A stretch of 64,000 nucleotides of DNA from an uncultured Clostridia bacterium (lineage in GTDB: Bacteria > Aerophobota > Aerophobia > Aerophobales > B3-G15): positions 5,398-69,397 of the forward strand of contig CAYZYX010000001.1 of NCBI GenBank assembly GCA_964482715.1, given 5' to 3'. A program made the translations under genes and the position numbers. Below are positions 7,069 to 45,439 of the stretch, piece after piece; within the stretch, counting starts at the first letter, position 1, and each line of letters begins with the position of its first letter. The notes under the pieces are model-generated. The model did not search any database, had not been told where the DNA came from, and saw only the letters and a program-made list of their open reading frames with translations.

Positions 7069-8391
7069 TTAACCATACTTTTCCGCTTCTTCTCTGGCAA
7101 TTCTACACCATTCTATCACGTTTTCCGGTCTTTTTCCTATAGTGTGGTTATCTTTCATTATAATCTCTACCACACAGCCCCTGGTTATCTCCAGGGCTCT
7201 TCTTATTTGTTTTCTGATAGTGTCTTTATCAATGGTCGGTTTTGCCAGCATAGCAGGGTTTGGCTTCATGGAAAATATGTACTTATCTTCCAGATAGGAG
7301 GCCATCTTTTCAAGGTTAACCCAGGGAGAACAGGAAACACGACGCAGGTTGTGGTGGTTTTTTACTACATGCCAGCGGGCATGTAGAGGTTCACAGCATC
7401 CATAACAGTTAAGCCCAAAGCGATCCAGAATGGACTTTTCATAGGGGAAAATAAATTCTTCATACATTTCAGGTGATACATTTACAGTCTCCTGGCTTTC
7501 CGCAAATCCCCACATGTCGCAGCATCTAACATGACCCTTAAAGTCTTTTTGCGGAAGTTCATCTGTGAACCCGAAACCACCAGAACCCACATAAGTTCCA
7601 TCATTATTCAGACTCAAAAGTCCCTCTCTTTCCAGAAAATCCAGCTTCTGAAGATAGCCTCTTGAGATAATTGACAAAAGCTGCTTAAGTTCATCTGGGT
7701 GCTCGATAAAATCACAGAGGAAGTTTTCAAGACCTCTTAGAGTTACCGCCGGCCAGGTAATTCCAAGTGACCACCACCAGGTGCCTTTCAAGCGAACTTT
7801 AAGAATATCTCCAAATATGTCTTTGGCCAGTTCAAAACATCCTCTTGTTGTTTTCCAGTCTATACAAACTCGCGGTGCATGGATTTTATTTAAATCAGTT
7901 TTGTAATCTTTTATAGGTGGATCCCAGGTATAGGATCCGGACTTGTCGGTTTGCCGATAAACTGGCTTAACGCCCCAATCATCAGGTGAAACAGTATAAG
8001 GAACATCAAAATAAGGTTCTACCGGCTTGTCATCCCCCATTTCTTCTCCCCAGAATATCTCCTTTCTCAGGTCCATCTCCCATCTGCGGGCAATTTTAGT
8101 TTTACACTTCATCTGACGTTCTGTGATTATCTCATTCCAGCCGTTTTCCGGGTCACAGAAGACCAAAGGTCTTGTTTTTTTTAGCATGTTATGATTTTTC
8201 CACAATTTGCGCTTTTCTTTCATGCGAGGAGAGGAAGCTAACATTTTAACCTTTCCAGCAAGTTCTTGCAAGATGAGTCTCTCTTCTCTGGAGATTTCAA
8301 GATCTTGAGGGGTAAATCCCGTGTATATCTTACCTGCTGCTGTTTGATCTAAACCTGTGGATTCACCGTCCCCATAGCTTTTCATAGGCAC
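7069..8391 (-). CDS. Uroporphyrinogen decarboxylase-like (URO-D/MtaA fold) family protein, 440 aa, long N-terminal extension
   Basis: C-terminal half aligns with the URO-D family core (SPEMYEEFIFPYEKSILD...GLNCYGCCEPL...FSMKPNPAML...IIMKD versus SPE.F.EF..PY.K.I......HICGN...LQGN.DP.LL). Paralogous to the ORFs at 19041, 23679 and 44216. Confidence 0.55.
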   Translation of the reverse strand: MPMKSYGDGESTGLDQTAAGKIYTGFTPQDLEISREERLILQELAGKVKMLASSPRMKEKRKLWKNHNMLKKTRPLVFCDPENGWNEIITERQMKCKTKIARRWEMDLRKEIFWGEEMGDDKPVEPYFDVPYTVSPDDWGVKPVYRQTDKSGSYTWDPPIKDYKTDLNKIHAPRVCIDWKTTRGCFELAKDIFGDILKVRLKGTWWWSLGITWPAVTLRGLENFLCDFIEHPDELKQLLSIISRGYLQKLDFLEREGLLSLNNDGTYVGSGGFGFTDELPQKDFKGHVRCCDMWGFAESQETVNVSPEMYEEFIFPYEKSILDRFGLNCYGCCEPLHARWHVVKNHHNLRRVSCSPWVNLEKMASYLEDKYIFSMKPNPAMLAKPTIDKDTIRKQIRRALEITRGCVVEIIMKDNHTIGKRPENVIEWCRIAREEAEKYG

Positions 8392-8407
8392 CTCTTCTCT
8401 TGGTACT

Positions 8408-8435
8408 ATTTTATAAGATGTGTTAAGGGTGTCAA
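8408..8435 (-). promoter_or_regulatory. Sigma70-like promoter on minus strand (TTGACA-16-TAAAAT) upstream of the 440-aa URO-D-like gene
   Basis: Reverse complement of 8430-8435 is TTGACA and of 8408-8413 is TAAAAT; spacer 16 nt. Confidence 0.4.
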
Positions 8436-8558
8436 AAAATATCTTCTTGAGGTCTGGACAGTTTCTTACGATGGGGTTCGGGGGCTTTATTTATCTCGAA
8501 AAAAATGTTCCAGCTCGGCTAACTTTTGCAAGTTGAAGAAATGATCAGCTTGAAAGAT

Positions 8559-8798
8559 TTAGCTGGTGCCGGCAAGTTGACCACAGACACTCTTCACATC
8601 TTTTCCCTTACTTTCTCTAATAGTCACAGGATGAGGAAGGGAAAGACACCAGCCATAAAATCTCTCAATTTCTTTTCTCTCTGAAGGTGAAAATGAAACA
8701 TTCTGGTGGGGGTTTAAAGGTATAAGGTTTATTTTCACCTTAAGCCCTCTGCAAAATTTTCTCAAAGCAAAAAAATCCTCCTTCCGGGTATTAAACAT
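8559..8798 (-). pseudogene. rlmN: Remnant of 23S rRNA/tRNA methyltransferase RlmN (radical SAM): C-terminal ~79 aa only
   Basis: Translation ...VKINLIPLNPHQNVSFSPSERKEIERF...PVTIRESKGKDVKSVCGQLAG matches the conserved RlmN/Cfr C-terminus (VNLIPFNP...R...I.RF......V..R...G.DI.AACGQLAG). No radical-SAM CxxxCxxC N-terminal region is encoded upstream in any frame. Confidence 0.55.
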
Positions 8799-8896
8799 TT
8801 TAATAAGATAAATATTAAAAAAATTTTCTTCCTTGACTATGTTCCACCAGGTGTTAGAATTAATCTGGAATTTATCAAGTTTAAACGGGGTTACTT

Positions 8897-9883: not shown

Positions 9884-9906
9884 AATAAAAAAAGAAGGAG
9901 ATTTAA

Positions 9907-10362: not shown

Positions 10363-10380
10363 TAAGACGGAGATAACTAT

Positions 10381-11307
10381 TTGGATAACCTAAAAGTGGA
10401 TTTGTCCACTTGTCTGGGGAAAATTAATTTAAAGAATCCTGTCCTTGTGGCCTCTGGCACTTTTGGATTTGGAGAAGAATACCACTCACTGATAGATTTG
10501 AATAAGCTGGGGGGTATTATTACTAAAACTGTTACTTTTAAACCCCTTCCAGGAAACCCTCCTCCTCGTCTGGCTGAAACATCAGCCGGGCTTTTAAATT
10601 CCATTGGTCTTGAGAATCCCGGAGTTGACCGCTTTATCTCGGAGAAATTACCTTTTTTGCAGAAAATCGAAAGCTTTATTGTTGTAAGCATTGGAGGCGA
10701 AAGTGAGGAAGAGTATTGTATGGTTGCGAAGAAACTTTCGCAGGCTCAAGGTATTGATGCTCTGGAGATTAATGTATCCTGTCCCAATGTAAAACAAGGA
10801 GGATACATACTCGGCAAAAGTGCAAAAAATGTCTTTGGCATTGTAAACAAGTTGAAAAATGTTACCTCTCTGCCTTTAATTGTTAAACTTACCCCTGAGG
10901 TAAGTGATATTGTAGAAATTGCTGAAGCTGCTCTCCAGGCAGGTGCAGAGGCTATTTCTTTGATAAATACTCTCCCGGGAATGGCAATTGACGTTAATAC
11001 CTGGCGTCCGAAACTGGGAGGTATCACTGGCGGATTGTCCGGTCCAGCCATAAAGCCTGTTGCTGTAAAGACAGTATGGGAAGTTTATCAGAAATTAAAA
11101 TGTCCCATTGTGGGAATGGGAGGAATAATGAATTTTGAAGATGCTCTTGAGTTTGTACTTGCTGGGGCAAGCGCAATAGCGGTAGGAACAGCCAATTTAA
11201 TTGATCCTCAGATATCCATAGACATCATAGAGAAGCTGGAGAGATATCTCGTTAAACAAAAAATAAAAAAATTTTCCTTTTTGATTGGTAAAGTCAAAAC
11301 AGCATAA
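10381..11307 (+). CDS. pyrD: Dihydroorotate dehydrogenase (type 1B) catalytic subunit PyrD
   Basis: LKNPVLVASGTFGFG N-terminal motif. TIM-barrel DHOD motifs (NVSCPN, GGI...G, AVGTA). Start codon uncertain (TTG 10381 or GTG 10396). Confidence 0.85.
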   Translation: MDNLKVDLSTCLGKINLKNPVLVASGTFGFGEEYHSLIDLNKLGGIITKTVTFKPLPGNPPPRLAETSAGLLNSIGLENPGVDRFISEKLPFLQKIESFIVVSIGGESEEEYCMVAKKLSQAQGIDALEINVSCPNVKQGGYILGKSAKNVFGIVNKLKNVTSLPLIVKLTPEVSDIVEIAEAALQAGAEAISLINTLPGMAIDVNTWRPKLGGITGGLSGPAIKPVAVKTVWEVYQKLKCPIVGMGGIMNFEDALEFVLAGASAIAVGTANLIDPQISIDIIEKLERYLVKQKIKKFSFLIGKVKTA

Positions 11308-11325
11308 GCTGCAGGTAAAGTCATT

Positions 11326-12392: not shown

Positions 12393-12578
12393 TCAGTTTT
12401 CCATACTCATAGGTGGTTTCATACATGGTGAGAATATTTTCAAGAAGTATCTCTGGTACTTTTTCATTAATTTTTCAATGAGTAAGTTGTAAATCTGTTC
12501 GCAGGCACAAAAATCAATAGGAACTCTATCCGGAAGCCCAAACTGATAAGTTTTTAATACCCTTTCTTCAGGAGTCAT
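12393..12578 (-). pseudogene. N-terminal remnant (61 aa) of a URO-D-like gene at the 3' end of the ABC transporter operon
   Basis: MTPEERVLKTYQFGLPDRVPIDF resembles the URO-D family N-terminus (ERV..AL.G..PDRVP). The frame stops after 61 codons and the downstream sequence encodes the CaCA gene on the opposite strand. The paralogous operon at 28.1-19.0 kb has a full URO-D-like gene at the equivalent position. Confidence 0.4.
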
Positions 12579-12605: not shown

Positions 12606-13451
12606 CTATTTAATGGCACCAAAGGTTAGACCTTTTATGAGATGTTTAGAGACCATGAAGGTAAAGATTATTGCTGGAATAAACATAATTACCGCCATGG
12701 CACACATTCCTCTCCAGTCCATTACAAACTCCGAGGTAAATTCAAGAAGACCTACAGGCATGGTTTTCGAAGATAAACTCCTGGTCAGAACTGATGCCAG
12801 CTGAAATTCATTCCAGGCCATTAAAAAAGCGAAAATTCCTGAAGCAGAAAGTCCTGGGGCACACAGGGGAAGTTCCACCTTGAGAAAAGCCTGCCATTTA
12901 GTACAACCATCAATTTGAGCAGCATCTTCCAGATCCTTAGGGATCTCTCTAAAGAAGCCATCCATTATCCATATCATAAAGGGTATGTTGTAGGCAATAT
13001 AAACTAAGGATAGACCCTCCAGAGTATCAAGCAGTTTTAATCTTACAAATAACATAAAAAGGGGAAGGCTGAGAGCAATTCCTGGAACAGCTCGGGAAAG
13101 CAGGACAAACAAAAACAGGGTGTCTCTTCCCTCGAAGTCAAATCTGGAAAAAGCAAATCCAGCCAGAGTCCCCAGTACAAGAGCAATTCCAGCACTTCCA
13201 AGGGAAGCAATGAGAGAATTTCTGAGGTAGTCTCTTACCGGGACGGCTTGTTCGCCAACTCCTGGACTGAAAAAGGCTTGTTGATACTTTTCCAGAGTAA
13301 GTTTTTTGGGAATCCAGACCGGAGGATAGGCATTTACCTCTACTTCTGGCCGGACAGAAGTAAAAATAATCCACAGAGCTGGAATAAGCATAAGGATTAA
13401 AAAAAAGTAAGCCAGAAATGAGAATGCGAATTCCTTACCCTTTTTCCTCAA
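12606..13451 (-). CDS. Carbohydrate ABC transporter permease (CUT1, MalG-like)
   Basis: Six TM segments; EAA-like loop AAQIDGCTKWQAFLKVELPL; paralog of 24914..25744. Confidence 0.85.
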   Translation of the reverse strand: MRKKGKEFAFSFLAYFFLILMLIPALWIIFTSVRPEVEVNAYPPVWIPKKLTLEKYQQAFFSPGVGEQAVPVRDYLRNSLIASLGSAGIALVLGTLAGFAFSRFDFEGRDTLFLFVLLSRAVPGIALSLPLFMLFVRLKLLDTLEGLSLVYIAYNIPFMIWIMDGFFREIPKDLEDAAQIDGCTKWQAFLKVELPLCAPGLSASGIFAFLMAWNEFQLASVLTRSLSSKTMPVGLLEFTSEFVMDWRGMCAMAVIMFIPAIIFTFMVSKHLIKGLTFGAIK

Positions 13452-13454
13452 TCC

Positions 13455-14327
13455 CTACCCCCTGGTTTTTAATAGTTGTTTAAAAAGATAATAGGCAAAG
13501 ACCACAGATATTATAACAGTTACATAAGACATAGCACATCCCAGACCAAATTTAGTGTCGATGATTCCCAACCTGTAAACGTAGGTCCAGATAAGCTCCG
13601 TACGGTGAGCTGGACCACCTCCTGTCATTATCTGAACTAAATCAAAAGCAGTTGCAATATCGAGGGATCTTATAGCCATAGCAATATAAATGAAAGGAGA
13701 TAAAAGCGGGAATGTTATGTGCCGAAATTTTTGAAATCCAGAAGCTCCATCTACTTCAGCTGCCTCAAAAGGATCCTTAGGTAGAGCCATCAGTCCAGCT
13801 GTAAGAATGATAATCATAAATGAAGTTCCTCTCCATATTTCAGCAATGAGAATGGAGAGCATGGCAAGGTCTCCTCTTATGAGCCAGAGAATAGGTTTTT
13901 CTATAAGATGAAGAGTATAAAGTAGATTATTTACCATTCCTACTTGATCGTTAAAAAACCATTTAAATTGAAATCCTACCAGTATGGGAGCAAACATCAT
14001 GGGGATCATAAAAAGAGTGCGGAGGATCCGACCCCCTTTTATTTCTCTTGCCAGAAGAAGTGCAATTCCCAGTCCCAAAAAGAGTTCAGTATTTATAGCA
14101 ATAGTGAGAAATATTACCGTGTTTTTCAGAGATTGCCAGAATACAGGATCATGGATCAAAGTTACATAATTCTCTCCACCTGTGAATACCATACTTCCTG
14201 GTGTAAGAAGAGAGTAACCTGTGAAACTGACATATAATGAAAACGCCAGTGGAAAAGCCACTACAAAAAGAATGATAGAGAGAGAAGGTGTTATCAAAAG
14301 GGCTGGGAGATATTTTTCTCTAATCAT
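13455..14327 (-). CDS. Carbohydrate ABC transporter permease (CUT1, MalF-like)
   Basis: EAA loop EAAEVDGASGFQKFRHITFPLL; paralog of 25746..26621. Confidence 0.85.
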   Translation of the reverse strand: MIREKYLPALLITPSLSIILFVVAFPLAFSLYVSFTGYSLLTPGSMVFTGGENYVTLIHDPVFWQSLKNTVIFLTIAINTELFLGLGIALLLAREIKGGRILRTLFMIPMMFAPILVGFQFKWFFNDQVGMVNNLLYTLHLIEKPILWLIRGDLAMLSILIAEIWRGTSFMIIILTAGLMALPKDPFEAAEVDGASGFQKFRHITFPLLSPFIYIAMAIRSLDIATAFDLVQIMTGGGPAHRTELIWTYVYRLGIIDTKFGLGCAMSYVTVIISVVFAYYLFKQLLKTRG

Positions 14328-14391
14328 TTTGACTTTTTACTTCAATTTTAAACCCCCACCGTCGAAACTCAGGTGGTGGGGGTTTACTCTT

Positions 14392-15726
14392 TTAATCGTA
14401 ATATCCTGCTTTTCTCATAAGCTCTTCAGTTTTTCTGGCAGCGTCATCAAGAGCTTTTTTTACCGGTTTTTCACCCAGTATAGCGGCCTGAAGTTCTGGA
14501 TAAAGAATATTGGAAAAAGCTGGCCACTCGGGGATGAGGGGAGGAGTTACGATCTCATCGTTTTCCAGAGCATATTTGTAGGTTTTATAGAAATTGAGCT
14601 TTCGAGAATCCTTGGTTGTTTTAAGGAGAAAATCCCATATAGATTTTCGAACAGCTCCAAATCCGAGTTGAGCTTCAAATTGCTGAGGTTCTTTGGAAGT
14701 AATGAATTTAACAAAGGAAACTGCAGCCTCCTTATTTTTACTTGATTTCAGAACAGAAAAAGTGTGACATCCAGCCCAGTGAACTCTAATTCCCGCATCT
14801 CCCTCAGGCATGAGAGCATATCCAAAAGTCTGTGCCACTTTGGAGCTTTTCGGGTCATCATACCAGGGGTACCACCCACCCCAGTCAAGATGGAAGGCAA
14901 TCTTACCCTGAGCGAAGTTCTTGGCAACATCGTCCCACACATAATTTACTACACCTGGTGGAACAAGACCGTTTTGATAAAGTCGTTTAAAATACTCTAA
15001 AGTCTTTACTCCAATAGGCGAGTTAAATACCGGTTTCCAGTGAGAGTCAAATAATCGCCCACCGTTGGAAAGTAGCATTTCGTAAAATCGACCTGTGAAG
15101 GCTTCCTCCTTTCCTGTAAATTGGGTCCCATAAACTGCGGGAGGATCATTAAGGAATTCGGCTATATCGTAAGCCTGGTCCCAGGTTTCGGGTGGAGTAA
15201 GTTCATATCCGTATTTTTCTTTAAAAACCTTCTTTTTAGCCGGGTCATTAAAGAGATCGGCACGGTAATAAATGTTACTTAAATCGATATGCCTTGGAAG
15301 CTGAATCAGCCGGTCACCTATGTAACACATGTGCAAGGTGCTTGGTAGGAAATCAGCAAGTTCCTCCTGGCTGACGTAAGGTTTAAGATCAAGAAGAACG
15401 CCAAACTTATCGTATTGTGCAGCGAAGCTGGTGTGATTGGTCATCACGTCATAATCAGCGGCTCCCGCTGCAAAATCAATTTTGAACTTTTTATCCAGCT
15501 CGAAATGACTCATCTTGGCTACAATTATTACTTTAGCTCCAGTTTGCTCTTCCCATTGGGGAATGAATTCTTCGTAAAGTTTCTCGTAATTTCCCCCACC
15601 TATTAGAGCTGCCTTAATAGTGACTCCTTCAAAAGGTTTTTTTGCTCCGGCAGGAACCCCAATTAACAGAACTCCCAATCCGATAGCCACGATAAAAAGG
15701 CCAACTCTTTGTACTTTTTTTACCAT
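14392..15726 (-). CDS. Extracellular solute-binding protein family 1 (sugar ABC transporter substrate-binding protein)
   Basis: Signal peptide; size and composition typical of CUT1 SBPs; paralog of 26739..28052. Confidence 0.8.
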   Translation of the reverse strand: MVKKVQRVGLFIVAIGLGVLLIGVPAGAKKPFEGVTIKAALIGGGNYEKLYEEFIPQWEEQTGAKVIIVAKMSHFELDKKFKIDFAAGAADYDVMTNHTSFAAQYDKFGVLLDLKPYVSQEELADFLPSTLHMCYIGDRLIQLPRHIDLSNIYYRADLFNDPAKKKVFKEKYGYELTPPETWDQAYDIAEFLNDPPAVYGTQFTGKEEAFTGRFYEMLLSNGGRLFDSHWKPVFNSPIGVKTLEYFKRLYQNGLVPPGVVNYVWDDVAKNFAQGKIAFHLDWGGWYPWYDDPKSSKVAQTFGYALMPEGDAGIRVHWAGCHTFSVLKSSKNKEAAVSFVKFITSKEPQQFEAQLGFGAVRKSIWDFLLKTTKDSRKLNFYKTYKYALENDEIVTPPLIPEWPAFSNILYPELQAAILGEKPVKKALDDAARKTEELMRKAGYYD

Positions 15727-15859: not shown

Positions 15860-16849
15860 CTAAACGGATACAATCACCGCCCTTCGCCTTCGATAAAAGT
15901 CAAATATAACGAAAAATAGTAAAAAACATCCAATTGCTACTTCTTTCCAAAATGCTGATATGGCCAGAACCACTATGATATTTTCAATTAAATACACACT
16001 AAATCCACCCAGGATCGCACCAAACGGTGATCCCTCACCTCCAGCAAGACTTATTCCTCCAATAAAAGCACCAGCAAGAATGGGTAGTAGGTATGGTGGA
16101 CCTATCAGGACCGATCCTACAGCTAAGTATGAGCCAACGATAACACCAGCAAACGCCTGCAGAAGAGATCCACAGCAGCAAGCGATTATTCTAATTTTTT
16201 TCACATTGATACCTACTTTCCTGGCAACCTCATCGTTTAATCCTGTAGCAAAAAATTGCCACCCTATGGGTCTGAAATAAAAAAAATACACCAGCATCAC
16301 TAAAACTATTAACAGATAAACAGTAACAATTGGAATCGGCCCTAATGCAGCTTTAGCTATAAGAGAATAAGAAGGAGGGAATCCGTAAATAGGGAAAGCC
16401 CTGGTAATTATCCTGGCTATACCAGTAAGGACAAAATTCAGCATTAAGGTAAAAATAAAAACCGGGAGCATGAATCTAAAAGGGGGTGAGAAATAAGTAC
16501 CAAATAAACCCGTTGTTAGACCTATTGCAAAGCCTGTTATTAAAACAATTAATACCGCCAGCCATATCTCAAAACCGTATCTTAAAATAAATACAGCGGC
16601 TAACACATTAGATATACAAATGACTCCTCCAAGAGATAAATCTATTCCTCCAGGAATCAAATAAAGCATTTCCCCCAGGACCATTAATGAAAAGATTGAA
16701 CCCCAGACAACTATAAGTCTTAAGTTAGCCGGGGTGTAAAAAAAGGGATTGATGATAAATATGATAAAAGATAAAATTACTATTAAGATGCATCTGTTAA
16801 CCTCAGTAATGGAAAGATGTTTTGCAAATAAACGGGTTACTTTTTGCAT
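15860..16849 (-). CDS. Monosaccharide ABC transporter permease (CUT2 / BPD_transp_2 family)
   Basis: Polytopic membrane protein resembling RbsC/FrcC-type permeases (Gly-rich TM segments, conserved central loop). Confidence 0.8.
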   Translation of the reverse strand: MQKVTRLFAKHLSITEVNRCILIVILSFIIFIINPFFYTPANLRLIVVWGSIFSLMVLGEMLYLIPGGIDLSLGGVICISNVLAAVFILRYGFEIWLAVLIVLITGFAIGLTTGLFGTYFSPPFRFMLPVFIFTLMLNFVLTGIARIITRAFPIYGFPPSYSLIAKAALGPIPIVTVYLLIVLVMLVYFFYFRPIGWQFFATGLNDEVARKVGINVKKIRIIACCCGSLLQAFAGVIVGSYLAVGSVLIGPPYLLPILAGAFIGGISLAGGEGSPFGAILGGFSVYLIENIIVVLAISAFWKEVAIGCFLLFFVIFDFYRRRRAVIVSV

Positions 16850-16859
16850 GCTTGTCTCT

Positions 16860-17624
16860 CTAATGCAGGTGAATTTTCTCTTTTGCTATTAATTGAGTGA
16901 TTTCATCAATTGTTGTATTTTCTGTCTTTTTATCACAGATTATTTCTCCCCGATCAAGTACTATTACTCTATCTGCAATAGGAAATATGTGACGTACATT
17001 GTGAGTAACAAAGATAATAGACATGGAAGTTTTATCGCGTATTGTCTTTATTCTCCGCAAACATCTATCTACTTCCTTTATTGATAGACCAGTTGTTGGT
17101 TCGTCTAAAAGTAAAACTCTGGTTCCGAAGTAAAATGCCCTTCCAAGAACAACTGCCTGTCTTTCCCCTCCGGAAAGTGACTCTATCAGCTGCTCTGACT
17201 TTTTATTAATGCCAATCTCGTTTAATTTTTCTTCGCTTATTTTTCTCATTTTCTCCTTATCAAGTACACGAATGAAGCCTACTTTTTTTATTATTTCTCT
17301 TCCCAGAAAGAAGTTTTTGTAGATATTCATTTTTTCGACTAAATTCGCAAATTGGTATACAATCTCGATACCTTGATTTCTTGCGTCTGCAGGTGAGGAA
17401 AAATGTACCTCCTTTCCCTCAAGATAAATTTTTCCCTCATCTGGTGGAAATAATCCTACAAGAATATTTAATAAAGTAGATTTTCCCGCACCGTTATCTC
17501 CTACAAGTCCTATAATTTCTTTTTCGTGAGTGGTAAAACTTATATTTTTTAAGGCAAAAATATTGTTGAATTTTTTGGTTATTTTTTCCACTCTTATTAT
17601 TTCCCGCATTGGCTCTGACATCAA
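16860..17624 (-). CDS. ABC transporter ATP-binding protein, single ABC domain (FrcA-like)
   Basis: Walker A GDNGAGKST, signature LSGGERQ, Walker B LLLDEPT, H-loop. Only one ABC domain in 254 aa. Confidence 0.85.
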   Translation of the reverse strand: MMSEPMREIIRVEKITKKFNNIFALKNISFTTHEKEIIGLVGDNGAGKSTLLNILVGLFPPDEGKIYLEGKEVHFSSPADARNQGIEIVYQFANLVEKMNIYKNFFLGREIIKKVGFIRVLDKEKMRKISEEKLNEIGINKKSEQLIESLSGGERQAVVLGRAFYFGTRVLLLDEPTTGLSIKEVDRCLRRIKTIRDKTSMSIIFVTHNVRHIFPIADRVIVLDRGEIICDKKTENTTIDEITQLIAKEKIHLH

Positions 17625-17717
17625 ATTTCTCCCTGTTGGATTTTTTAAAACTTGTGAAAGTCATAGTGCACCTCCTGTAGTTTAATTTTCGATGGAGGTG
17701 CACTATTTTTCTTCTAC

Positions 17718-25744: not shown

Positions 25745-25745
25745 C

Positions 25746-26621: not shown

Positions 26622-26738
26622 CTTTCTTTTCCTTCCTCATCATAATTTTTGAGCAGTTCAATTTTCTGTTCTATAAAGAGAAAGTAACGCATATTAGAAA
26701 GAAGAGGAGCTATTGAACAGCTCCTCTTCTTTTTTTAA

Positions 26739-29210: not shown

Positions 29211-29304
29211 TTTTTGTCAAGTTTATTATTTGACCTTATTGAAAATGGGTTTAAAATTAAGAGGCGCGATATTCAGGGTTTAAAAAATCTTTCGGGAGAG
29301 AAAA

Positions 29305-34418: not shown

Positions 34419-34892
34419 ATGACACTCGGATTTGCCTTAGCTTTGTTAGGAGCTGGATTGGCGGTAGGTTTAGCAGGTATTGGTTCAAGTATAGGTATAG
34501 GTTATGCTGGACAGGCTTCTACCGGGGCTATGACCGAAGATCCAGAGAATTTTGGTAGATATCTTATTCTTACAGCTTTGCCAGGGACACAGGGAATATA
34601 CGGTTTTATTGCTGCCTTTCTTTTAATTATAAAAATAAATCTTCTAACTGGAACTTTGCCTTCTCTAACTGTAGCTCAGGGACTTAATCTTTTATTTGCC
34701 GCCTTACCTATTGCTGTTCTTGGTTTTATTTCAGCTATTCATCAAGGAAAGGTTTGTGCATCGGGAGTTGGACTTACGGTTAAAAGACCAGCCGATTCCA
34801 TGAAAGCTATGGTTTTAGCCGTTTTCGTCGAATTCTATGCTGTGCTGGGGCTTCTTATCACTATTTTCCTGATAAATGGTATCCAGATTTAG
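34419..34892 (+). CDS. ntpK: V-type ATP synthase proteolipid subunit K
   Basis: Double-hairpin proteolipid closely matching Enterococcus hirae NtpK as recalled (PENFGRYLILTALPGTQGIYGF, LPIAVLGFISAIHQGKV, VEFYAVLG). Confidence 0.85.
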   Translation: MTLGFALALLGAGLAVGLAGIGSSIGIGYAGQASTGAMTEDPENFGRYLILTALPGTQGIYGFIAAFLLIIKINLLTGTLPSLTVAQGLNLLFAALPIAVLGFISAIHQGKVCASGVGLTVKRPADSMKAMVLAVFVEFYAVLGLLITIFLINGIQI

Positions 34893-34923
34893 ATAGGTCA
34901 AAATAAGTAGAAAGGGTAAAAAC

Positions 34924-35520
34924 ATGGGTCTGGATGAGATAATAAAAAGTATAGACATAAAAGTAAATGAGGAACTGGAAAAGATAAAAAGGCAGACGGA
35001 AGAGGAAACAAAAAAGATTCTAACCGAGGCTAAGGAGAAAGCCGGGCAGAATAAAGAAAAACTCCTTTTCAGAGGGAAAAAAAACCTTGAAGATCAGATG
35101 AAAAGAAAACTGATTCAGACAAGAATAGAGGAGAATAAAGATACTTTAAAGTTAAAAAGAAAATTAATAGATGAGATGTTTGAGGAGGCCTTTAAGAGAT
35201 TTCAGAATCTGGATAAAAGGGAGTATCTTTCCCTGATGAAAGAGGCTCTCCTGAACAATCTCTCTCCAGAGGAAGAAGATGTGATACTTATTTCTCCTCA
35301 CGATGAAAAAATGATTGACAAAGAGTTTATAAGGGAACTGGAAAGATCTCTCCCCGAAAAGAAGGTAAAACTCAGGTTTTTACCTCAGCTTGATGAAAAA
35401 GAGAGAGGTTTTGTTGTGAGAAAGAGGAATATGGAAATAAACTGTACCCTTTCTGCTCTGTTTGCTGCAATGAAAGATAAAATTGAAATTGACGTAGCTC
35501 GCCAACTTTTTGGACAATGA
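34924..35520 (+). CDS. ntpE: V-type ATP synthase subunit E
   Basis: 198 aa, highly charged N-terminal coiled coil (LDEIIKSI...EELEKIKRQTEEE), C-terminal globular part; immediately follows ntpK. Confidence 0.7.
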   Translation: MGLDEIIKSIDIKVNEELEKIKRQTEEETKKILTEAKEKAGQNKEKLLFRGKKNLEDQMKRKLIQTRIEENKDTLKLKRKLIDEMFEEAFKRFQNLDKREYLSLMKEALLNNLSPEEEDVILISPHDEKMIDKEFIRELERSLPEKKVKLRFLPQLDEKERGFVVRKRNMEINCTLSALFAAMKDKIEIDVARQLFGQ

Positions 35521-40057: not shown

Positions 40058-40074
40058 AAAGCTGAGGAGGAAAA

Positions 40075-41310
40075 GTGCACAAGTGGATGACAATGTTTCT
40101 TTGTGGGGGACTTATTTGGATACATGCAAGCTCTCTTCCAGGATTTACTTCTATCAATGTATCTACTCTTCCTGAGCCCTATTCTACTGTTCTCACCATT
40201 TACGAGAGGGGAGATTTTACTTTAGTTCAAGAACGCTACTTGATTAATTTAAAAGAAGGGGTAAATACCTTGCAGTTTGATTGGTCTGGGACCCTGATTG
40301 ATCTCTCCTCAGTTGAACTAAAATTCCTCCTGCATCCTGACAGAGTTAATCTTGAGGAAATAATTTTACCTGTCCGTGGAGAAAAACTTTTACTCTGGAA
40401 AATCCAGGCAGAAGAACCTGTAAGAGAATTAATTGAAGTTTCCTATTTTACCCGGGGAATTTCCTGGCAGGCAGATTATGATCTCGCGATTAATGAGCAA
40501 AGAAGCCGGGTTTTAAAATTTCAGGGCTGGGTCAGGATAAAAAATCAAAGCGGTAGGGACTTCTTAAAATCCAGGATTATGCTTATCACCGGTGAACCGC
40601 ATTTACTGGGACGGAAAAAGGAAAAACCCCTGAAAGCGGCACTTAGAATGAGAACAAAGATAGAAGCCGAGGCTTTGCCCCCTCCTATCAGCAAAGAGGC
40701 TGTGTCTGAGTATTACCTCTATCAAATTGAAGGTGAAAATGATCTTAGAACCGGTCAGGAGTCCACCTTTTCACTATTTAGAGTAGAGAATATCCTGCTT
40801 CTGGTGACATATCGATTCAATAGCTCGCAAAACGGTTTATTTCCTGTAATCTTGTGTAAATTTAAAAATACGCAAAAGTTCTCTTTACCACCGGGTGTTG
40901 TGCGAGGATGGTTATGTATCAATGGGAAAAAAGAAGAATATCTGGGTGAAGCCAGTATAGATTTTATACCTCCTGATGAAGATATCAAATTGAGTTTGGG
41001 AAAAGAAAGCAGATTAAAGCTGACCAGAAAAAAGACCTCCTTTACCCGTGAGGACCCACAGTTTAGCAAGAGAAACGATTTAGTTCAGTATTTCGAAAGA
41101 GAAGAGTATACTCTAAAAATTACAAATTTCTCGAATCAGGAAGTCAAAATTGAAATTAGAGAACAGATACCTGGAGAATGGGAATTTATCACCTCAACGG
41201 TTCCTTTGCATCGGAGGGAAGCAAATGCTCTTGAGTTCAGGTTAACTCTACCTGAAAGAGGCGAGGGAGAAGTTATTTACCAGATAAGAAAAATAGTAAG
41301 GCTGAGGTAA
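40075..41310 (+). CDS. Secreted DUF4139/DUF4140-like (MuiA-like) family protein
   Basis: Signal peptide. Internal ISWQADYDL segment and C-terminal ...IPGEWEFI...LEFRLTLPERGEGEVIYQI resemble the DUF4139 C-terminal pattern. Paralogous to the next ORF. Confidence 0.5.
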   Translation: MHKWMTMFLCGGLIWIHASSLPGFTSINVSTLPEPYSTVLTIYERGDFTLVQERYLINLKEGVNTLQFDWSGTLIDLSSVELKFLLHPDRVNLEEIILPVRGEKLLLWKIQAEEPVRELIEVSYFTRGISWQADYDLAINEQRSRVLKFQGWVRIKNQSGRDFLKSRIMLITGEPHLLGRKKEKPLKAALRMRTKIEAEALPPPISKEAVSEYYLYQIEGENDLRTGQESTFSLFRVENILLLVTYRFNSSQNGLFPVILCKFKNTQKFSLPPGVVRGWLCINGKKEEYLGEASIDFIPPDEDIKLSLGKESRLKLTRKKTSFTREDPQFSKRNDLVQYFEREEYTLKITNFSNQEVKIEIREQIPGEWEFITSTVPLHRREANALEFRLTLPERGEGEVIYQIRKIVRLR

Positions 41311-41314
41311 TAAA

Positions 41315-42439
41315 GTGAAGCCATGTTTTAAATTTTCTGGATTAACCTTCTGGTTTATTCTTTTGCTGAATTTTGTTTTTCCTAATTTTGGTTACGGTGG
41401 GGTTAGCCTTTTAACTTCGCCCGAACAGATAAATATAAAGTTACTGGAAAATCAGAAAGCTCTAATAACCGAAACAAGATATTTAGATCTAAAAGAAGGA
41501 ATAAATGAGGTCTATTTGAAGTACCCTGGAATGAGAGTTATTCCTGATTGTTTTTCTATAAATTTTGTTGAAACTCCGGAAAAAATAAGATTTATCCGCA
41601 GTTCAGTTTCTCTTAAAGACCCTTTCAGTTGTAGCTGGATATTCTATTCTCAGGTAGAGGGAAAGAGACTCACAGAGATTTCTTACCTGGTGGAAGGTTT
41701 GGTTAGAAGCTATTCTTACATCGGTGAAATAGATAAAGAGGGAGATTTAATTTTATTAAGAGGCTCTCTTTTACTCGATAACCAAACAGGAGCTAATTTT
41801 CGAGGAGTTACCCTGATTGGAGAAAAACAGGGCAGGTGGAACATTGATCTTGATTCGGGACAAAAAAAGAAGTTACCACTCTTTGACGGTCTTTCTTTTT
41901 CTTTGCAAAAGGCCTACCTTGTAGATAGGGAAAATTACGGTAACCGGGTTATTTTTAAATACAGATTTATTAATGAAAGTCAGAATATCCTGTCACCCGG
42001 GAAAATCAGGGTTTATCAGAGAGAACCAGAGAGATTGACTTTTTTGGGTGAAGATGAAATCGGGATCGTAAACCCCGGAGAAAGAATAGAAATAGTAGTT
42101 GGAACTGTCCGGGATATAAGGGTGGAGAGGAAAATGGTTGAATTTTCACGCATTAATTTGAGAAGGGACGATACCGGACATCTGGAGGTTTACGATACCC
42201 GGGAAAAATATGAAATATATTTAAAAAACAGAAAAAAAGAAAAGGTAAGGATAGTAGTTCGGGAATACATTCCTGATAGCTGGGAAATGATAAATTCTGA
42301 ACCAGCCGGATACGTAAAAGAAGACGCTCATCATATAAGATTTGAAATCGATCTTGAACCAGGGGAAGAGAAGAAAATTAGCTATCAGATCTACCGTAGA
42401 AATCTACTCCCTGGAGAACCGGTGAAGCCCCTTTTGTAA
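41315..42439 (+). CDS. Secreted DUF4139/DUF4140-like family protein (tandem paralog)
   Basis: Signal peptide; shared segments with 40075..41310 (YLDLKEGINEVYL, EISYLVEG, IPDSWEMI...IRFEIDLEPGEEKKISYQI). Confidence 0.5.
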   Translation: MKPCFKFSGLTFWFILLLNFVFPNFGYGGVSLLTSPEQINIKLLENQKALITETRYLDLKEGINEVYLKYPGMRVIPDCFSINFVETPEKIRFIRSSVSLKDPFSCSWIFYSQVEGKRLTEISYLVEGLVRSYSYIGEIDKEGDLILLRGSLLLDNQTGANFRGVTLIGEKQGRWNIDLDSGQKKKLPLFDGLSFSLQKAYLVDRENYGNRVIFKYRFINESQNILSPGKIRVYQREPERLTFLGEDEIGIVNPGERIEIVVGTVRDIRVERKMVEFSRINLRRDDTGHLEVYDTREKYEIYLKNRKKEKVRIVVREYIPDSWEMINSEPAGYVKEDAHHIRFEIDLEPGEEKKISYQIYRRNLLPGEPVKPLL

Positions 42440-42460
42440 CCTCTTAGCCTTAAATTAACG

Positions 42461-43111: not shown

Positions 43112-43113
43112 AT

Positions 43114-44073
43114 CTATTGCTCACTCTCCTGCATGAGTTTTGATACCTCTTCCAGAGTGGGTGCTCCCTCCATGGGTCCTTTTTTAGTGACACTTAAGGC
43201 TCCCACAGCATTGGCAAATTTTGCCACCCGGGATAGTTCCCATCCTTTTAGAAGGCCTACCAGAAACCCGGCGTCAAAGCAATCTCCTGCTCCTGTCGGA
43301 TCTACTTCTTTCACCTCAAAAGAGGGCGCCTCTATCCTACCATCAAGAGTAAAAACAGTGGAGCCTTTTTTCCCCTGTTTTAGGGCCACAATACGGGGAC
43401 CGTATTTTAAAAGTTCTTCACAGGCAGAGAAAACATCCTTTATCCCGGTCAGCATAACAGCTTCCTCTCCACTTGGCATTATCACTTCACTTACCGCAAG
43501 AACAGGCTGGCAAATTTTCCTTATCTCTTCAATACTTAAAAGCTCTGGTCTGAGATTAGGGTCAAAACTTATCTTTCCACCCAGGTCTCTTGCCATTTCT
43601 ATTGCTTGTTCGCAGACTTTTTGACACTCTTTATTTATGGAAAGACTTGAACCCATTATGTGCAGGTATTTAACATCTGAGAAGTAATCCCGGTTAAATT
43701 GGTCAAGGTTTATTTTTCCTGAAGCGGCCCGGGGAAGATGATAGATGAATTTACGAGACCCATCAGCGAAGTAAGCAACAAAAGCAACTCCTGTAGTGAA
43801 CCCCTTAAGCATCCTGACACAACCTGTATCCACCCCATCTTTTTCCAGTCTATCAAGAATTAACCTGCCAAAATCATCATGACCCACTGTTCCAATAATA
43901 CCACTTTTTTCTCCGAGTCTTGCCACGGCATCGGCAAAAATAGCTGGTGCCCCACTGGGAAAAGGACCCACAAAAGTTCCGGGCCTATTAAGAGGTTCGT
44001 CTATTTTCTCTCTCATAATTTCTACCAGAAGCTCCCCAATTGTGACTATATTTGGGCTCATTTTACCCTCCAA
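43114..44073 (-). CDS. PfkB-family carbohydrate kinase
   Basis: DPTGAGDCFDAGFLVG motif; ribokinase-like fold. Confidence 0.85.
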   Translation of the reverse strand: MEGKMSPNIVTIGELLVEIMREKIDEPLNRPGTFVGPFPSGAPAIFADAVARLGEKSGIIGTVGHDDFGRLILDRLEKDGVDTGCVRMLKGFTTGVAFVAYFADGSRKFIYHLPRAASGKINLDQFNRDYFSDVKYLHIMGSSLSINKECQKVCEQAIEMARDLGGKISFDPNLRPELLSIEEIRKICQPVLAVSEVIMPSGEEAVMLTGIKDVFSACEELLKYGPRIVALKQGKKGSTVFTLDGRIEAPSFEVKEVDPTGAGDCFDAGFLVGLLKGWELSRVAKFANAVGALSVTKKGPMEGAPTLEEVSKLMQESEQ

Positions 44074-44215
44074 TAAGAAAAATTCAATAAGAAGAAAATG
44101 TCTTTAATACTTTATAATCTTTTCAGGATTGGTCAAGAAGACCAGGAAAATTATCACTGTTATTAACTTTTGATAGAAATTCTGTTATAATATTGGAAAA
44201 ATGATTGTGTGAGGA

Positions 44216-45439
44216 ATGAGTAAAATGAATATTGCCACAACTTCCAGAGAGAAGATGCTTGCGGTACTGGAAAATAAACAGATAGATTACATCCCTTGCT
44301 CTTTTATGATTTTTAGTGCCCTCGAAGAAAAATGTAAGGATCAGTTTGAGTTTGTAGAAAAACAGTTAAAATTGGGTCTGGATGCGAAAGTTGAGCTACC
44401 CGAGCTCCCCTTTCGTTTCCATTCAGAGGTGAAGGTAAAAGAGTGGAAAGAAAAAACAGAAAGTGGAGACCTTCTCCATAAAGAATATCAAACACCCGCT
44501 GGAAAGCTTACCTGTGTGGTAAGAAAAACAGAAGACTGGCCTTATGGTGACCGTGTTCCTCTGTTTAATGATTATCTTACACCTCGTTGCAAGAAGTTTC
44601 TCGTAGAAGGAAAAAGCGATCTCGAGCCACTGCGATATCTTTTTAATCCCCCAACAAAAGAAGATATTTCGCTCTTTCGTCAACAGGCAAAAGTTCTTAA
44701 AGATTTTGCCAGTCAAAAAGGTCTCCTGGTTTCAGGTGGATGGAGATTTTCTTTTGCCTCAGAAAAGGGAATAGATAGAGACGGTGGTACTATGGGAGCG
44801 GATGCCCTTTTCTGGCTTTGTGGAGTGGAAAATGCAATTTTGCTTGCCATGGAAGAGCCAGAAACTATAATGGAGCTTCTTCAGATAATTTCTGAGTGGA
44901 ACATGAAAAGAATGCAGGTTTACCTTGAAGAAGGAGTAGATCTTCTCATCAGGCGTGCCTGGTATGAAAGCACGGATCTCTGGTCTCCTTTTCTTTTTCG
45001 CAAATTTTTCTTTCCTGTTCTTAAAGAAGAAATAAAACTCGTGCATCAAGCAGGGGCAAAATTTGGCTATATAATGACAAGTGGAGTGATGCCCTTATTA
45101 GATGATTTTCTAAAGTTAGGTATTGATGTGCTCATTGGAATTGATCCTCTGGAGGGGAAAGGAACGGATCTTAGAATTATTAAGGATAAATTGGATGGGA
45201 AGGTCTGTCTCTGGGGAGGAGTAAATGGATTTTTAACTGTTGAAAGAGGCGAGGAAAAAGAAGTAAAAGAGGCAGTTGAGGAAGCTATTTCTATTCTTGG
45301 ACCTCGAGGTTTTATTCTTTCTCCGGTGGACAGTGTCACCGATAATTCCTCCAGGACATGGAATAATGTAAAGGTAATGATTGAAACCTGGCAAAGGAAG
45401 GTAAAAGAATTAGCAAGAACCTCCAGGAAAGAACTATAG
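44216..45439 (+). CDS. Uroporphyrinogen decarboxylase-like (URO-D/MtaA fold) family protein
   Basis: URO-D family C-terminal pattern (SPFLFRKFFFPVLKEE...GYIMTSG...DVLIGIDPLEG...LWGGVNG...GFILSPVDS); paralog of 19041 and 23679. Confidence 0.65.
   Translation: MSKMNIATTSREKMLAVLENKQIDYIPCSFMIFSALEEKCKDQFEFVEKQLKLGLDAKVELPELPFRFHSEVKVKEWKEKTESGDLLHKEYQTPAGKLTCVVRKTEDWPYGDRVPLFNDYLTPRCKKFLVEGKSDLEPLRYLFNPPTKEDISLFRQQAKVLKDFASQKGLLVSGGWRFSFASEKGIDRDGGTMGADALFWLCGVENAILLAMEEPETIMELLQIISEWNMKRMQVYLEEGVDLLIRRAWYESTDLWSPFLFRKFFFPVLKEEIKLVHQAGAKFGYIMTSGVMPLLDDFLKLGIDVLIGIDPLEGKGTDLRIIKDKLDGKVCLWGGVNGFLTVERGEEKEVKEAVEEAISILGPRGFILSPVDSVTDNSSRTWNNVKVMIETWQRKVKELARTSRKEL

Follow-up and report, generated by a model that had tools for sequence, protein, structure and literature searches.

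The window, a 64,000-nucleotide stretch of a Candidatus Aerophobetes genome, contains four intact genes and one decayed gene of the UroD fold. They fall into no fewer than five old and distinct UroD-superfamily clades, which we call U387, U394, U407, U440 and the HSCG type, the last being the decayed one. The relatives of each clade number in the thousands, are spread over many phyla and likewise adjoin carbohydrate genes. This placement in carbohydrate loci recurs across hundreds of unrelated genomes, so the carbohydrate link proposed in an earlier note on this DNA is real; we found no published function for these clades in the literature searched. We favor, with a probability of roughly 0.4, the reading that the paralogs remove O-methyl groups from methylated sugars, such as methylated fucose or rhamnose, which would free the sugar for ordinary catabolism.

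Results

Every open reading frame named in the earlier note is present where the note placed it. The count of five full-length genes, however, becomes four, because the divergent 440-residue copy is the gene at 7069–8391 itself, counted twice. The Pfam model PF01208 (URO-D; gathering score 23.9 bits) recovers three of them above the gathering score, U387 at 94.7 bits, U407 at 55.3 bits and U394 at 28.3 bits, but leaves U440 without a Pfam match. Pairwise identity among the four is 20–27% or undetectable. The genes are thus members of ancient clades, not products of a recent local expansion.

U440 (7069–8391, minus strand; 440 residues, with the recorded product beginning at 8385) belongs to a family of about 2179 representatives that lacks a Pfam model, and its sequence has no match in Pfam, NCBIfam or the PDB. 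The best 24 Foldseek matches of its AlphaFold (AF2) model (pLDDT 92) all have the URO-D/MtaA fold (E down to 2e-6, probability 1.0). A profile–profile alignment with the U387 family is colinear through the active-site motifs, at a probability of only 5.8%. The predicted structure, proposed earlier as a check, therefore places the protein in the fold as a remote member recognizable by structure rather than by sequence. Within its own family, a YGCCE motif, E105, D121 and Q300 are invariant. The idea that each paralog is wired to sugar genes holds for U387, U394, U407 and the remnant but not for U440, which in the window adjoins genes for a DUF72 protein, a GTPase and subunits of DHODH and is in no sugar operon. 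Relatives of U440 do adjoin other URO-D types in three loci (L101, L091 and L081).

U394 and U387 lie, as had been described, in a LacI-headed sugar ABC operon: a 15-gene array on the minus strand that begins at 29141, contains three sugar ABC systems and ends with the remnant at 12393, neighboring genes being spaced by −23 to 258 nt. The LacI-family regulator (28131–29141; Pfam LacI and Peripla_BP_1/3) is preceded by a best promoter-like site at 29220–29192 whose score is not above that of shuffled sequences. A CUT1-type sugar ABC set, A (24914–28052; SBP_bac_1 at 26739–28052, permeases at 25746–26621 and 24914–25744; Pfam), has generic sugar-binding proteins as its relatives in the PDB. After U394 comes a 498-residue protein of the L-fucose/L-arabinose isomerase family (22156–23652; Pfam Fucose_iso_N1/N2/C), whose cluster members carry the name fucose isomerase, Aerophobetes. 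The adjacent aldehyde:ferredoxin oxidoreductase (AOR family; 20182–22125; Pfam AFOR_N and AFOR_C) presumably oxidizes lactaldehyde or a similar aldehyde, and its adjacency to the isomerase is kept in L001, L002 and L006. U387 is followed by a ribose/rhamnose-type ABC set (15860–18782; Peripla_BP_4 at 17718–18782, 254-residue ATPase at 16860–17624, BPD_transp_2 permease at 15860–16849; Pfam), which also adjoins U387 and U394 orthologs that travel together in L096/L097. A second CUT1-type set, B (12606–15726; Pfam), is a distant paralog of set A (blastp identity of 27% for the binding protein and 38–40% for the permeases). On a closely related contig, L007, kinase and class II aldolase genes lie just past the point that corresponds to position 1 of the window.

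The remnant (12393–12578, minus strand; 61 residues) had been described as closing the paralogous transporter operon. It is indeed the last gene of the array and proves to be an internally deleted fifth paralog. By tblastn and frame comparison with the related contig L002 (10312–11299), where the intact gene comes after the same permease pair, its residues 1–42 share 74% identity with the 5′ end of that gene and its 3′ end matches the 3′ end, the middle ~0.9 kb being deleted. The intact HSCG type is found together with U387 in 19 of 59 loci.

U394 (23679–24863, minus strand; 394 residues) has a His279-x-Asp281 ... Glu300 ... Asp364 site, and its HWDG motif aligns with HICG of 4ay7; hhalign relates it to the U387 family at 95%. 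We regard it as a candidate sugar O-demethylase of the methyltransferase I type. In 6 of 74 U394-family loci, a U394-like gene, a corrinoid protein gene (PF02310 plus PF02607) and a second URO-D gene follow one another in that order; the corrinoid protein is absent from the other 68. The U394-like proteins of these triads are 38–42% identical to U394 and keep all family motifs, and the second URO-D protein is nearest, among the window paralogs, to U387 (26% identity over 392 residues). Carbohydrate genes accompany two of the six triads, and the neighbors of the other four (LarA-like, SDR, APC permease) are not clearly carbohydrate genes. A GH38 α-mannosidase gene overlaps the triad end in L170 and stands directly upstream of a U394-like gene in four more loci that have no corrinoid gene (e.g. 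L127 and L132). In L100, another triad locus, a U394-like gene is joined by two additional URO-D genes and by genes for a corrinoid protein, the activator RACo and a homocysteine S-methyltransferase, and on the sugar side by two ROK proteins (kinases), a lyxose-isomerase-like gene and a carbohydrate esterase of the SASA type; the locus includes a classical MtaA-like gene (HVCG...GCEC).

U387 (19041–20204, minus strand; 387 residues) carries His269-x-Cys271 ... Glu293 ... Asp351-His352 and belongs to a mutarotase-linked clade. Because its relatives are 384 residues long, translation probably begins at the ATG at position 20195. A RhaM-family mutarotase stands beside the U387 type in 44 of 80 loci, against 1 of 80 for U394, and one such protein was identified as an L-fucose mutarotase (PDB 7byw, E 8e-39). 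GH29 fucosidase genes occur in 11 of the 80 U387 loci, which further hold RhaT, rhamnose-type ABC, GH95-like and FucI genes, and in Neomoorella glycerini the ortholog sits between FucI and a class II aldolase in a microcompartment locus. Orthologs abound in Acidobacteriota and Planctomycetota, many of which, judging by taxon names, we take to be aerobes. The best structural matches are HemE and MtaA, followed by MetE, a cobalamin-independent member of the superfamily; the sequence match of U387 to CdmB (9rui) is weak (E 8e-4).

U407 (44216–45439, plus strand; true start probably at 44225) has lost the His-x-Cys motif and has GYIMTSG in its place. An identical protein of 404 residues is on record, and orthologs lie directly after GH4 genes. 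The pairing noted earlier is present: U407 is followed by an MFS transporter gene (45491–46669, plus strand; Pfam MFS_1, Sugar_tr) and faces a divergent gene for a PfkB sugar kinase (43114–44073, minus strand; Pfam PfkB), which is tagatose-kinase-like and scores 336 bits against NCBIfam NF049991, below the cut-off of 420.

By Pfam and tblastn, no corrinoid protein, corrinoid activator (RACo), cobamide or heme-pathway gene occurs anywhere in the 64 kb, in agreement with the earlier note as to corrinoid proteins and the heme pathway, and no corrinoid protein was found in L001–L015 or in L178, a locus with six paralogs in 18 kb. The note took this to mean that methyl transfer of the MtaA type does not fit. 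Methyl transfer cannot, however, be dismissed from the lack of a corrinoid gene in the window: relatives of U394 occur in corrinoid triads, and at the zinc-ligand position of MtaA, which the note had named for comparison, U387 keeps His-x-Cys and U394 keeps His-x-Asp.

Discussion

The window proteins resemble several known systems without belonging to any of them. The methylcobamide:coenzyme M methyltransferases MtaA, MtbA and MtsA (4ay7) are soluble members of the same superfamily, but the window proteins score 57.9, 31.9 and 31.4 bits, far below the family cut-offs (235), and of the MtaA ligands the third Cys is replaced in U387, both Cys are replaced in U394 and the motif is lost in U407. 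Moreover, no corrinoid protein adjoins them, and they come from a sugar-fermenting bacterium, where they accompany sugar transport rather than methanogenesis. OdmB, VdmB, MtvB and MtoB, which are corrinoid-dependent O-demethylase methyltransferase I enzymes of anaerobes, and the chloromethane enzyme CdmB (9rui), all also of this superfamily, occur as many substrate-specific paralogs, and the U394 relatives share with such O-demethylase systems the URO-D/corrinoid protein/URO-D triad. In the zinc site of methyltransferase I enzymes and CdmB, carboxylates replace Cys, or zinc is absent (PMC10418091, PMC13222342). The substrates known for them, however, are methyl halides or the methyl ethers of aryl compounds rather than sugars, and in the known systems a corrinoid protein, usually with an activator, adjoins the methyltransferase, as it does not in the window and most related loci. 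MetE is a double barrel, whereas U387 is a single one; sequence similarity to MetE is undetectable, and the window has no folate or homocysteine context.

If the paralogs are sugar O-demethylases, the ABC systems would import a methylated 6-deoxyhexose or related sugar. The His/Asp/Glu/Asp metal site of U394 would then bind the methoxy oxygen and transfer the methyl to a Co(I) corrinoid, as O-demethylase methyltransferase I enzymes do, and U387, with the HSCG type in relatives, would handle methyl-fucose or methyl-rhamnose or else relay the methyl group. The freed sugar would proceed through the FucI-like isomerase, a kinase and a class II aldolase, and the resulting lactaldehyde would be oxidized by AOR. 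In this organism, the corrinoid carrier and activator would be encoded elsewhere in the genome, or free cobamide would be used. We counted in favor of O-demethylation the triads, those tied to sugar genes, the link between U387 and U394 and the fucose/rhamnose neighbors. We also counted the multiplicity of paralogs, many of which adjoin different transporters and glycosidases, since numerous substrate-specific paralogs are the known pattern of methyltransferase I families. Against it we counted the missing corrinoid genes in the window and most loci, as the carrier gene is normally found next to the methyltransferase gene in the corrinoid systems that are known; the presumed aerobes among the hosts, in which Co(I) chemistry would be unusual; the chemistry itself, an alkyl methyl ether being harder for Co(I) to cleave than the aryl ethers of known O-demethylases; the loss of the motif in U407; and the neighbors of four of the six triads, which are not clearly carbohydrate genes.

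The main rival reading is that the enzymes convert sugars without a corrinoid, a new catalytic use of the fold that we consider somewhat less probable than O-demethylation. With the conserved metal site serving as a Lewis acid on a free sugar, they might carry out aldose–ketose isomerization or epimerization of L-rhamnose or L-fucose, in place of RhaA/FucI or alongside them, or else remove a sugar substituent in the cobalamin-independent manner of MetE. A corrinoid protein occurs in 0 of 80 U387-family loci and none in the window; U387 directly adjoins mutarotases and transporters, the usual spot of the first enzyme to act on a free sugar, and occurs in lineages taken as aerobic; U407 stands between transporter and kinase, like a sugar-converting step; the U394 ligands resemble those of Mn/Co sugar isomerases and epimerases; and MetE is the next structural match after HemE and MtaA. 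But we know of no UroD superfamily member that isomerizes or epimerizes sugars, the operon here already encodes a FucI-family isomerase, as does that of Moorella, sugar isomerases do not typically have a Cys ligand such as that of U387 and the HSCG type, and the genuine corrinoid triads include the U394 type. The activities listed for the superfamily are decarboxylase, methionine synthase, epoxide-CoM transferase and corrinoid methyltransferases (PMC10418091). It is improbable that the proteins are methyltransferases, corrinoid-dependent or thiol-directed, that act on small non-sugar methyl compounds (for example methanol from pectin, methylthiols, methoxylated aromatics) and stand in sugar operons because of co-regulation with polysaccharide breakdown. 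The best NCBIfam matches, far below cut-off, are to MtaA/MtbA/CmuA models, and the four triads with non-carbohydrate neighbors and the MtaA-like gene in L100 point the same way. The close and specific pairing of U387 with mutarotases is, however, difficult to account for unless the substrate is a 6-deoxyhexose. In addition, permease and isomerase genes flank the genes at distances of 26–50 nt, and most loci lack a corrinoid gene.

Decarboxylation of a sugar acid, the example offered in the earlier note, seems very improbable. It draws on the name of the fold, HemE being a cofactor-free decarboxylase with the same barrel; yet HemE chemistry needs the pyrrole ring as an electron sink, the HemE N-terminal signature is absent, uronate and aldonate genes are not enriched in our neighbor censuses, and the conserved site is a metal site of the MtaA/MetE type, which HemE lacks. 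That any of these proteins is a true HemE for tetrapyrrole synthesis, as the Pfam family name and fold might suggest, is for practical purposes refuted, as the note had held: U387 scores 25.7 bits against the hemE model TIGR01464 (cut-off 303) and the other three have no match, PROSITE-type HemE signatures are absent, the window has no tetrapyrrole context, and four divergent copies placed in sugar operons would not be expected of HemE.

Sugar O-demethylation would have a functional analogue in the P450 6-O-methyl-D-galactose demethylase of marine bacteria, described as part of a polysaccharide-utilization locus in which demethylation enables catabolism of the sugar (PMC6292453, PMC9400963). 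That enzyme has an unrelated fold, needs O2 and releases formaldehyde, whereas the route that we propose would not be oxidative and would run in anoxic sediment.

Results

Three of the URO-D-like genes of the window exceed the PF01208 URO-D gathering score of 23.9 bits in a Pfam profile search: U387 (19041-20204, minus strand; 94.7 bits), U407 (44216-45439, plus strand; 55.3 bits), and U394 (23679-24863, minus strand; 28.3 bits). Among the members modelled, the closest structure is a (beta/alpha)8 barrel of the URO-D type. An open reading frame is present at every coordinate that an earlier note on this DNA had named, and the family assignment made there holds by this profile for these three genes; U440 (7069-8391, minus strand) and a 61-residue remnant (12393-12578, minus strand) fall below the gathering score. 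The five full-length copies counted in that note are four intact ones, because its “divergent 440-aa copy” is the gene at 7069-8391. The four are 20–27% identical at best in pairwise comparison and are therefore old paralogs. Judged by the start position in relatives, the true start of U387 probably lies three codons 3′ of the GTG; with the GTG start, an exact sequence look-up returned no match.

U440 has no match in Pfam, NCBIfam, or PDB sequences. A full HMMER search gives it a family of its own, with about 2179 representatives, in which Glu-105, Asp-121, Gln-300, and the G-C-C within YGCCE are invariant. The profiles of this family and of the U387 family are colinear (YGCC over YHGC, KDNHT over SDHS), but hhalign reaches a probability of only 5.8%, so that the case for homology depends on predicted structure. 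AlphaFold models the protein with confidence (pLDDT 92), and the 24 best Foldseek matches of this model in the PDB are without exception MtaA-like or HemE structures. On this predicted structure we accept U440 as a remote member of the URO-D fold. The proposal that it is wired to sugar genes does not survive, as in the window it stands alone among non-sugar genes (DUF72, a GTPase, and two separated dihydroorotate dehydrogenase subunit genes). Elsewhere, a U440-like gene lies 82 nt 3′ of a U394-like gene (contig L101), and two loci (L091 and L081) have both U440-like and U387-like genes. The two genes of dihydroorotate dehydrogenase B, for the electron-transfer subunit (DHODB_Fe-S_bind; 5530-6330, plus strand) and the catalytic subunit (DHO_dh; 10381-11307, plus strand), are 4 kb apart, with DUF72, U440 on the opposite strand, an MMR_HSR1/TGS GTPase, and DUF1841 between them; a related contig, L007, keeps the same split arrangement.

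The remnant is better understood from a related contig, L002, in which a URO-D gene of a fifth type, marked by the motif HSCG, comes after the same permease pair. The 61-residue frame is 74% identical to the first 42 residues of this gene, its 3′ end also matches the 3′ end of the gene, and about 0.9 kb of the middle is absent. On this alignment, the URO-D remnant recognized earlier is a pseudogene made by internal deletion.

Fifteen genes, all on the minus strand, occupy the stretch between 29141 and 12393, and the gaps separating them measure −23 to 258 nt. The array starts with LacI, a CUT1 ABC set, U394, a 498-residue FucI-family isomerase, an aldehyde:ferredoxin oxidoreductase (AOR), and U387, and continues with a Peripla_BP_4/BPD_transp_2 ABC set with a 254-residue ATPase, a second CUT1 set, and the remnant. 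A promoter and terminator scan of the array did no better than shuffles, so that the operon boundaries are drawn from gene spacing. U407 has an MFS gene downstream and is divergent from a tagatose-kinase-like PfkB gene. This gene order agrees with the earlier description of U394 and U387 in a LacI-led sugar transporter operon and of U407 with an MFS transporter and a divergent PfkB kinase. Cluster names for the isomerase mark the organism as Candidatus Aerophobetes. In the related contig L007, genes for an FGGY kinase and a class II aldolase stand just beyond what is position 1 of the window. Compared with PDB sequences, the three binding proteins have only generic sugar-binding relatives (maltose/trehalose, sorbitol, sulfoquinovosyl-glycerol, and ribose types), which offer no clue to the ligand. 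With all genes of the 64-kb window annotated, no corrinoid protein, corrinoid activator, heme-pathway gene, or tetrapyrrole enzyme is found, as had been stated for corrinoid proteins and the heme pathway, and tblastn of the window with corrinoid and activator proteins from other loci found nothing.

The AOR-family gene (20182-22125, minus strand) lies inside the sugar-uptake operon between the FucI-like isomerase and U387, whose start its end overlaps by 23 nt, and the order isomerase–AOR–U387 is kept in three related contigs (L001, L002, and L006). Enzymes of this family are normally tungsten-dependent; here the AOR probably replaces a lactaldehyde dehydrogenase. A role in detoxifying formaldehyde from oxidative demethylation was not adopted, as an oxygenase is lacking and the oxidation of lactaldehyde would account for the place beside the isomerase. 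The ATPase of the ribose-type transporter (16860-17624, minus strand) is a single 254-residue domain, whereas in L003 and L085 the counterparts are two-domain fusions of 504–507 residues; the transporter has one permease gene, compared with two in L096 and L097. In the second CUT1 transporter, the 64-nt gap from the binding-protein gene to the first permease gene holds a strong 15-bp hairpin with eight G-C pairs (14349-14386), the longest stem of the terminator scan, which may determine how much binding-protein transcript there is relative to permease transcript.

Against the hemE equivalog model TIGR01464 (cut-off 303), U387 scores 25.7 bits, and U394, U407, and U440 have no match. The N-terminal signature of HemE, P-x-W-x-M-R-Q-A-G-R in its PROSITE pattern, holds catalytic arginine residues; in a regular-expression search of the four proteins with the two HemE/UROD signatures, both were absent. 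U387 has an invariant YHGCG at a position where HemE is without metal ligands. A HemE role is thus rejected on the model score, the absent signature, and the lack of tetrapyrrole context in the window, in keeping with the earlier judgment that the canonical role does not fit. The decarboxylation of a sugar acid, which had been suggested in its place, is not supported either, and we reject it along with HemE on the HemE model, the signature search, and the neighbor censuses described below.

For the MtaA/CmuA-type corrinoid methyltransferases, scores against the NCBIfam model TIGR01463 (cut-off 235 bits) are 57.9 for U387, 31.9 for U394, and 31.4 for U407, with no match for U440. Relative to the His-x-Cys...Cys zinc site of MtaA and CmuA, and with ligands assigned from alignments rather than coordinates, U387 would present His269-x-Cys271 with Asp351/His352 in the third position, U394 His279-x-Asp281 and Asp364, and U440 Cys332-Cys333-Glu334; U407 appears to have lost the motif, and its family has no metal motif of the U387/U394 kind. 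Invariant in the U387 family are His269, Cys271, Glu293, Asp351-His352-Ser353, Cys170, and Glu174, and in the U394 family His279, Asp281, Glu300, Asp327, and Ser363-Asp364, the His/Asp/Glu/Asp set being unchanged in 42 sequences. The two families align over their full length in hhalign (95% probability), HWD over HGC, and the HWDG of the U394 profile aligns with HICG of PDB entry 4ay7. S-Methyltransferases of the UroD superfamily use His-Cys-Cys, and in the O-methyltransferases one or both cysteines are replaced by carboxylates or lost (Kountz and Balskus, PMC10418091). By this rule, U394, with His/Asp/Glu/Asp, looks like an oxygen-directed enzyme, and U387 would be intermediate; the carboxylates of U394 and the lost motif of U407 are what the rule describes for methyltransferase I of O-demethylases.

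The U387 family is very large and tightly conserved, with more than 5800 matches at 52–58% identity across phyla. With each species represented by one genome, carriers were counted in at least 578 species, from Planctomycetota, Acidobacteriota, Hydrogenedentota, Spirochaetota, Verrucomicrobiota, and Ignavibacteriota to Clostridia, Anaerolineae, and one member of Bathyarchaeia. By far the commonest partner, from ORF clustering and a Pfam census, is an L-rhamnose mutarotase (PF05336), in most cases encoded on the same strand and no more than 60 nt away. Neighbor ORFs in GC-rich loci were called simply as the longest ones, and a tblastn census was used against that bias; it found a RhaM-family gene in 44 of 80 U387 loci versus 1 of 80 U394-family loci. 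In Planctomycetota, an L-fucose mutarotase (PDB 7byw, E = 8e-39) is on the other side of U387. Further partners are GH29 fucosidase (11/80), RhaT (7/80), FucI (5/80), rhamnose-type ABC transporters, GH95-like and GH63-like hydrolases, and Amidohydro_2. In Neomoorella glycerini (L003, CP046244), the ortholog sits between FucI and a class II aldolase in a microcompartment locus. This fucose/rhamnose locus has three URO-D genes, and because the organism is cultured, their function could be tested. Of 59 loci, 19 contain along with U387 a second URO-D gene, of the HSCG type, in many cases immediately upstream of it. Five loci gave “long” U387 matches of 1.6–1.8 kb; an inserted domain or intein was rejected as their cause because a second URO-D paralog lies directly upstream. 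The cognate corrinoid gene that an MtaA/CmuA-type enzyme would have nearby is missing from the window and, by tblastn, from all U387-family loci (0/80).

A word-index search found 2673 relatives of U394, at least 536 are present in metagenome contigs, and in Atribacterota such genes recur in CUT1 operons controlled by LacI or ROK. The 127 nearest neighbors of U394-type genes include SBP_bac_1, BPD_transp_2, GH38, ROK, and B12-binding domains, about five each, the last of these unexpected. In 6 of 74 U394-family loci, the order is a U394-like gene, a corrinoid protein (PF02310 and PF02607), and a second URO-D gene, whose closest paralog in the window is U387. The U394-like proteins of these triads are 38–42% identical to U394 and keep WQPRI..WY, H-x-D-G, E-x3-P-x-P-x-G-[DN]-V, L-x-D-G-I-P, and G-[IV]-S-D. 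The full O-demethylase set of corrinoid protein, second methyltransferase, and ATP-dependent activator (RACo) accompanies a U394-like gene only in L100, which has in order ROK, a SASA carbohydrate esterase, a URO-D gene, the U394-like gene, a homocysteine S-methyltransferase domain protein, the corrinoid protein, an MtaA-like URO-D gene, a second ROK, the RACo activator, and a lyxose-isomerase-like gene; the other five triad loci are without activator. In one triad locus (L170), a GH38 alpha-mannosidase overlaps the triad end by 33 nt, and four more loci, which have no corrinoid gene, carry GH38 directly upstream of their U394-like gene (e.g. L127 and L132). A U387 ortholog (50%) and a U394 ortholog (62%) occur together in L096, which, like L097, shares the Peripla_BP_4 transporter of the window.

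U407 orthologs lie directly 3′ of a GH4 glycosidase in one other contig from Aerophobetes and in an unrelated contig of 114 kb, where GH38, GH172, and an FGGY kinase are encoded as well. The locus L178, from another lineage, packs six URO-D genes into 18 kb together with GH20, GH35, SIS, ROK, and an aldo-keto-reductase/Fe-S fusion, and has no corrinoid protein. Such a fusion of an aldo-keto reductase to a 4Fe-4S dicluster domain (369–380 residues) recurs directly beside URO-D paralogs of two clades (L103:3214-4323, L105, L108, L178:8750-9892, and L179), again without a corrinoid protein; between the two groups of loci, the copies share 52% identity. The fusion could serve the neighboring URO-D enzymes as a redox partner.

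Discussion

A carbohydrate link of these URO-D clades is beyond reasonable doubt, and the partners of U387 point to L-fucose and L-rhamnose as its sugars. In the simplest reading, O-methyl sugars would be demethylated, with different paralogs serving different sugars, and we put the probability of such demethylation at about 0.4. In the known chemistry of the UroD superfamily, its members except HemE transfer methyl or alkyl groups to or from a heteroatom at a zinc site (PMC10418091). The zinc-type site appears to be retained in U387 and U394, and the U394 clade demonstrably forms corrinoid triads, two of whose loci also contain carbohydrate genes. The estimate is no higher because corrinoid genes are absent from the window, from most related loci, and from all U387 loci, and because U387 is common in Acidobacteriota and Planctomycetota, taken as largely aerobic. 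In known corrinoid systems the carrier gene is usually adjacent, and alkyl methyl ethers are harder to cleave than aryl ones; a pattern of many paralogs is familiar from O-demethylase families.

The main rival, a conversion of sugars that is independent of corrinoid, would be the more novel outcome, and we consider it somewhat less likely than demethylation. It draws its strength from the U387 clade, whose 80 loci compared are all free of corrinoid genes and which is spread over at least 578 species, including lineages taken as aerobic. Sugar isomerases, with their typical metal ligand sets, served as a comparison. It is possible, though less likely than not, that U387, with its frequent HSCG tandem partner, acts without corrinoid on L-fucose and L-rhamnose or their methyl ethers. 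Were this true, the fold would have acquired a new reaction, that of a cobalamin-independent sugar ether demethylase or a 6-deoxyhexose isomerase/epimerase, and an unrecognized step would exist in one of the commonest sugar pathways of soil and sediment bacteria. What probability demethylation and the corrinoid-independent conversion leave goes to minor alternatives and to the unknown. Literature searches pairing the URO-D family with sugar-use, methylated-sugar, or phylum terms found no paper on these proteins, and a search on Aerophobetes and corrinoids gave no relevant match.

Polysaccharides of plants, algae, and microbes commonly contain methylated sugars, among them 2-O-methyl-fucose and 2-O-methyl-xylose of pectin, 4-O-methyl-glucuronate of xylan, 3-O-methyl-rhamnose, and 3-O-methyl-mannose. 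We know of no account of how anoxic sediment and gut microbes handle their methyl groups, and the literature searched yielded a single kind of sugar demethylase, an O2-dependent P450. If the URO-D paralogs are demethylases, they would explain many “uroporphyrinogen decarboxylase family” genes in Aerophobetes, Atribacterota, Planctomycetota, Acidobacteriota, Hydrogenedentota, and others, and would tie polysaccharide breakdown to C1 metabolism; this hypothesis also makes the choice of assay substrates clear. Should they instead work without corrinoid, their chemistry would be new for a well-studied fold. In both cases, their automatic annotation as heme enzymes is wrong and inflates the tetrapyrrole synthesis predicted for uncultivated lineages.

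Other genes of the window

The segment 35510-39873 encodes a mannitol dehydrogenase family protein, a Zn-alcohol dehydrogenase, a PdxA-family dehydrogenase, and a convergent PfkB kinase and looks like a sugar-alcohol or sugar-acid cluster. The PdxA-family protein scores 356 bits with TIGR00557 pdxA (above the 290 cut-off), 376 bits with the NCBIfam model PRK03743 (below the 470 cut-off), and 303 bits with the D-threonate-4-phosphate dehydrogenase model (below cut-off). Relatives of it and of the Zn-alcohol dehydrogenase are also near U394-like genes in L098, L110, and L160. Between uvrB and the mannitol dehydrogenase gene are just two V-type ATPase genes (34419-35520, plus strand), for proteolipid c (157 residues) and subunit E; the remaining subunits are not nearby. 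Two adjacent DUF4139 paralogs of 411 and 374 residues (40075-42439, plus strand) lie upstream of a uracil-DNA glycosylase gene. Finally, a 319-residue ORF with no Pfam or NCBIfam match (1325-2284, plus strand) and a 520-residue ORF with only a short thioredoxin-like match (3393-4955, plus strand) adjoin the gene of a CARDB-domain protein, and both are kept in L007.
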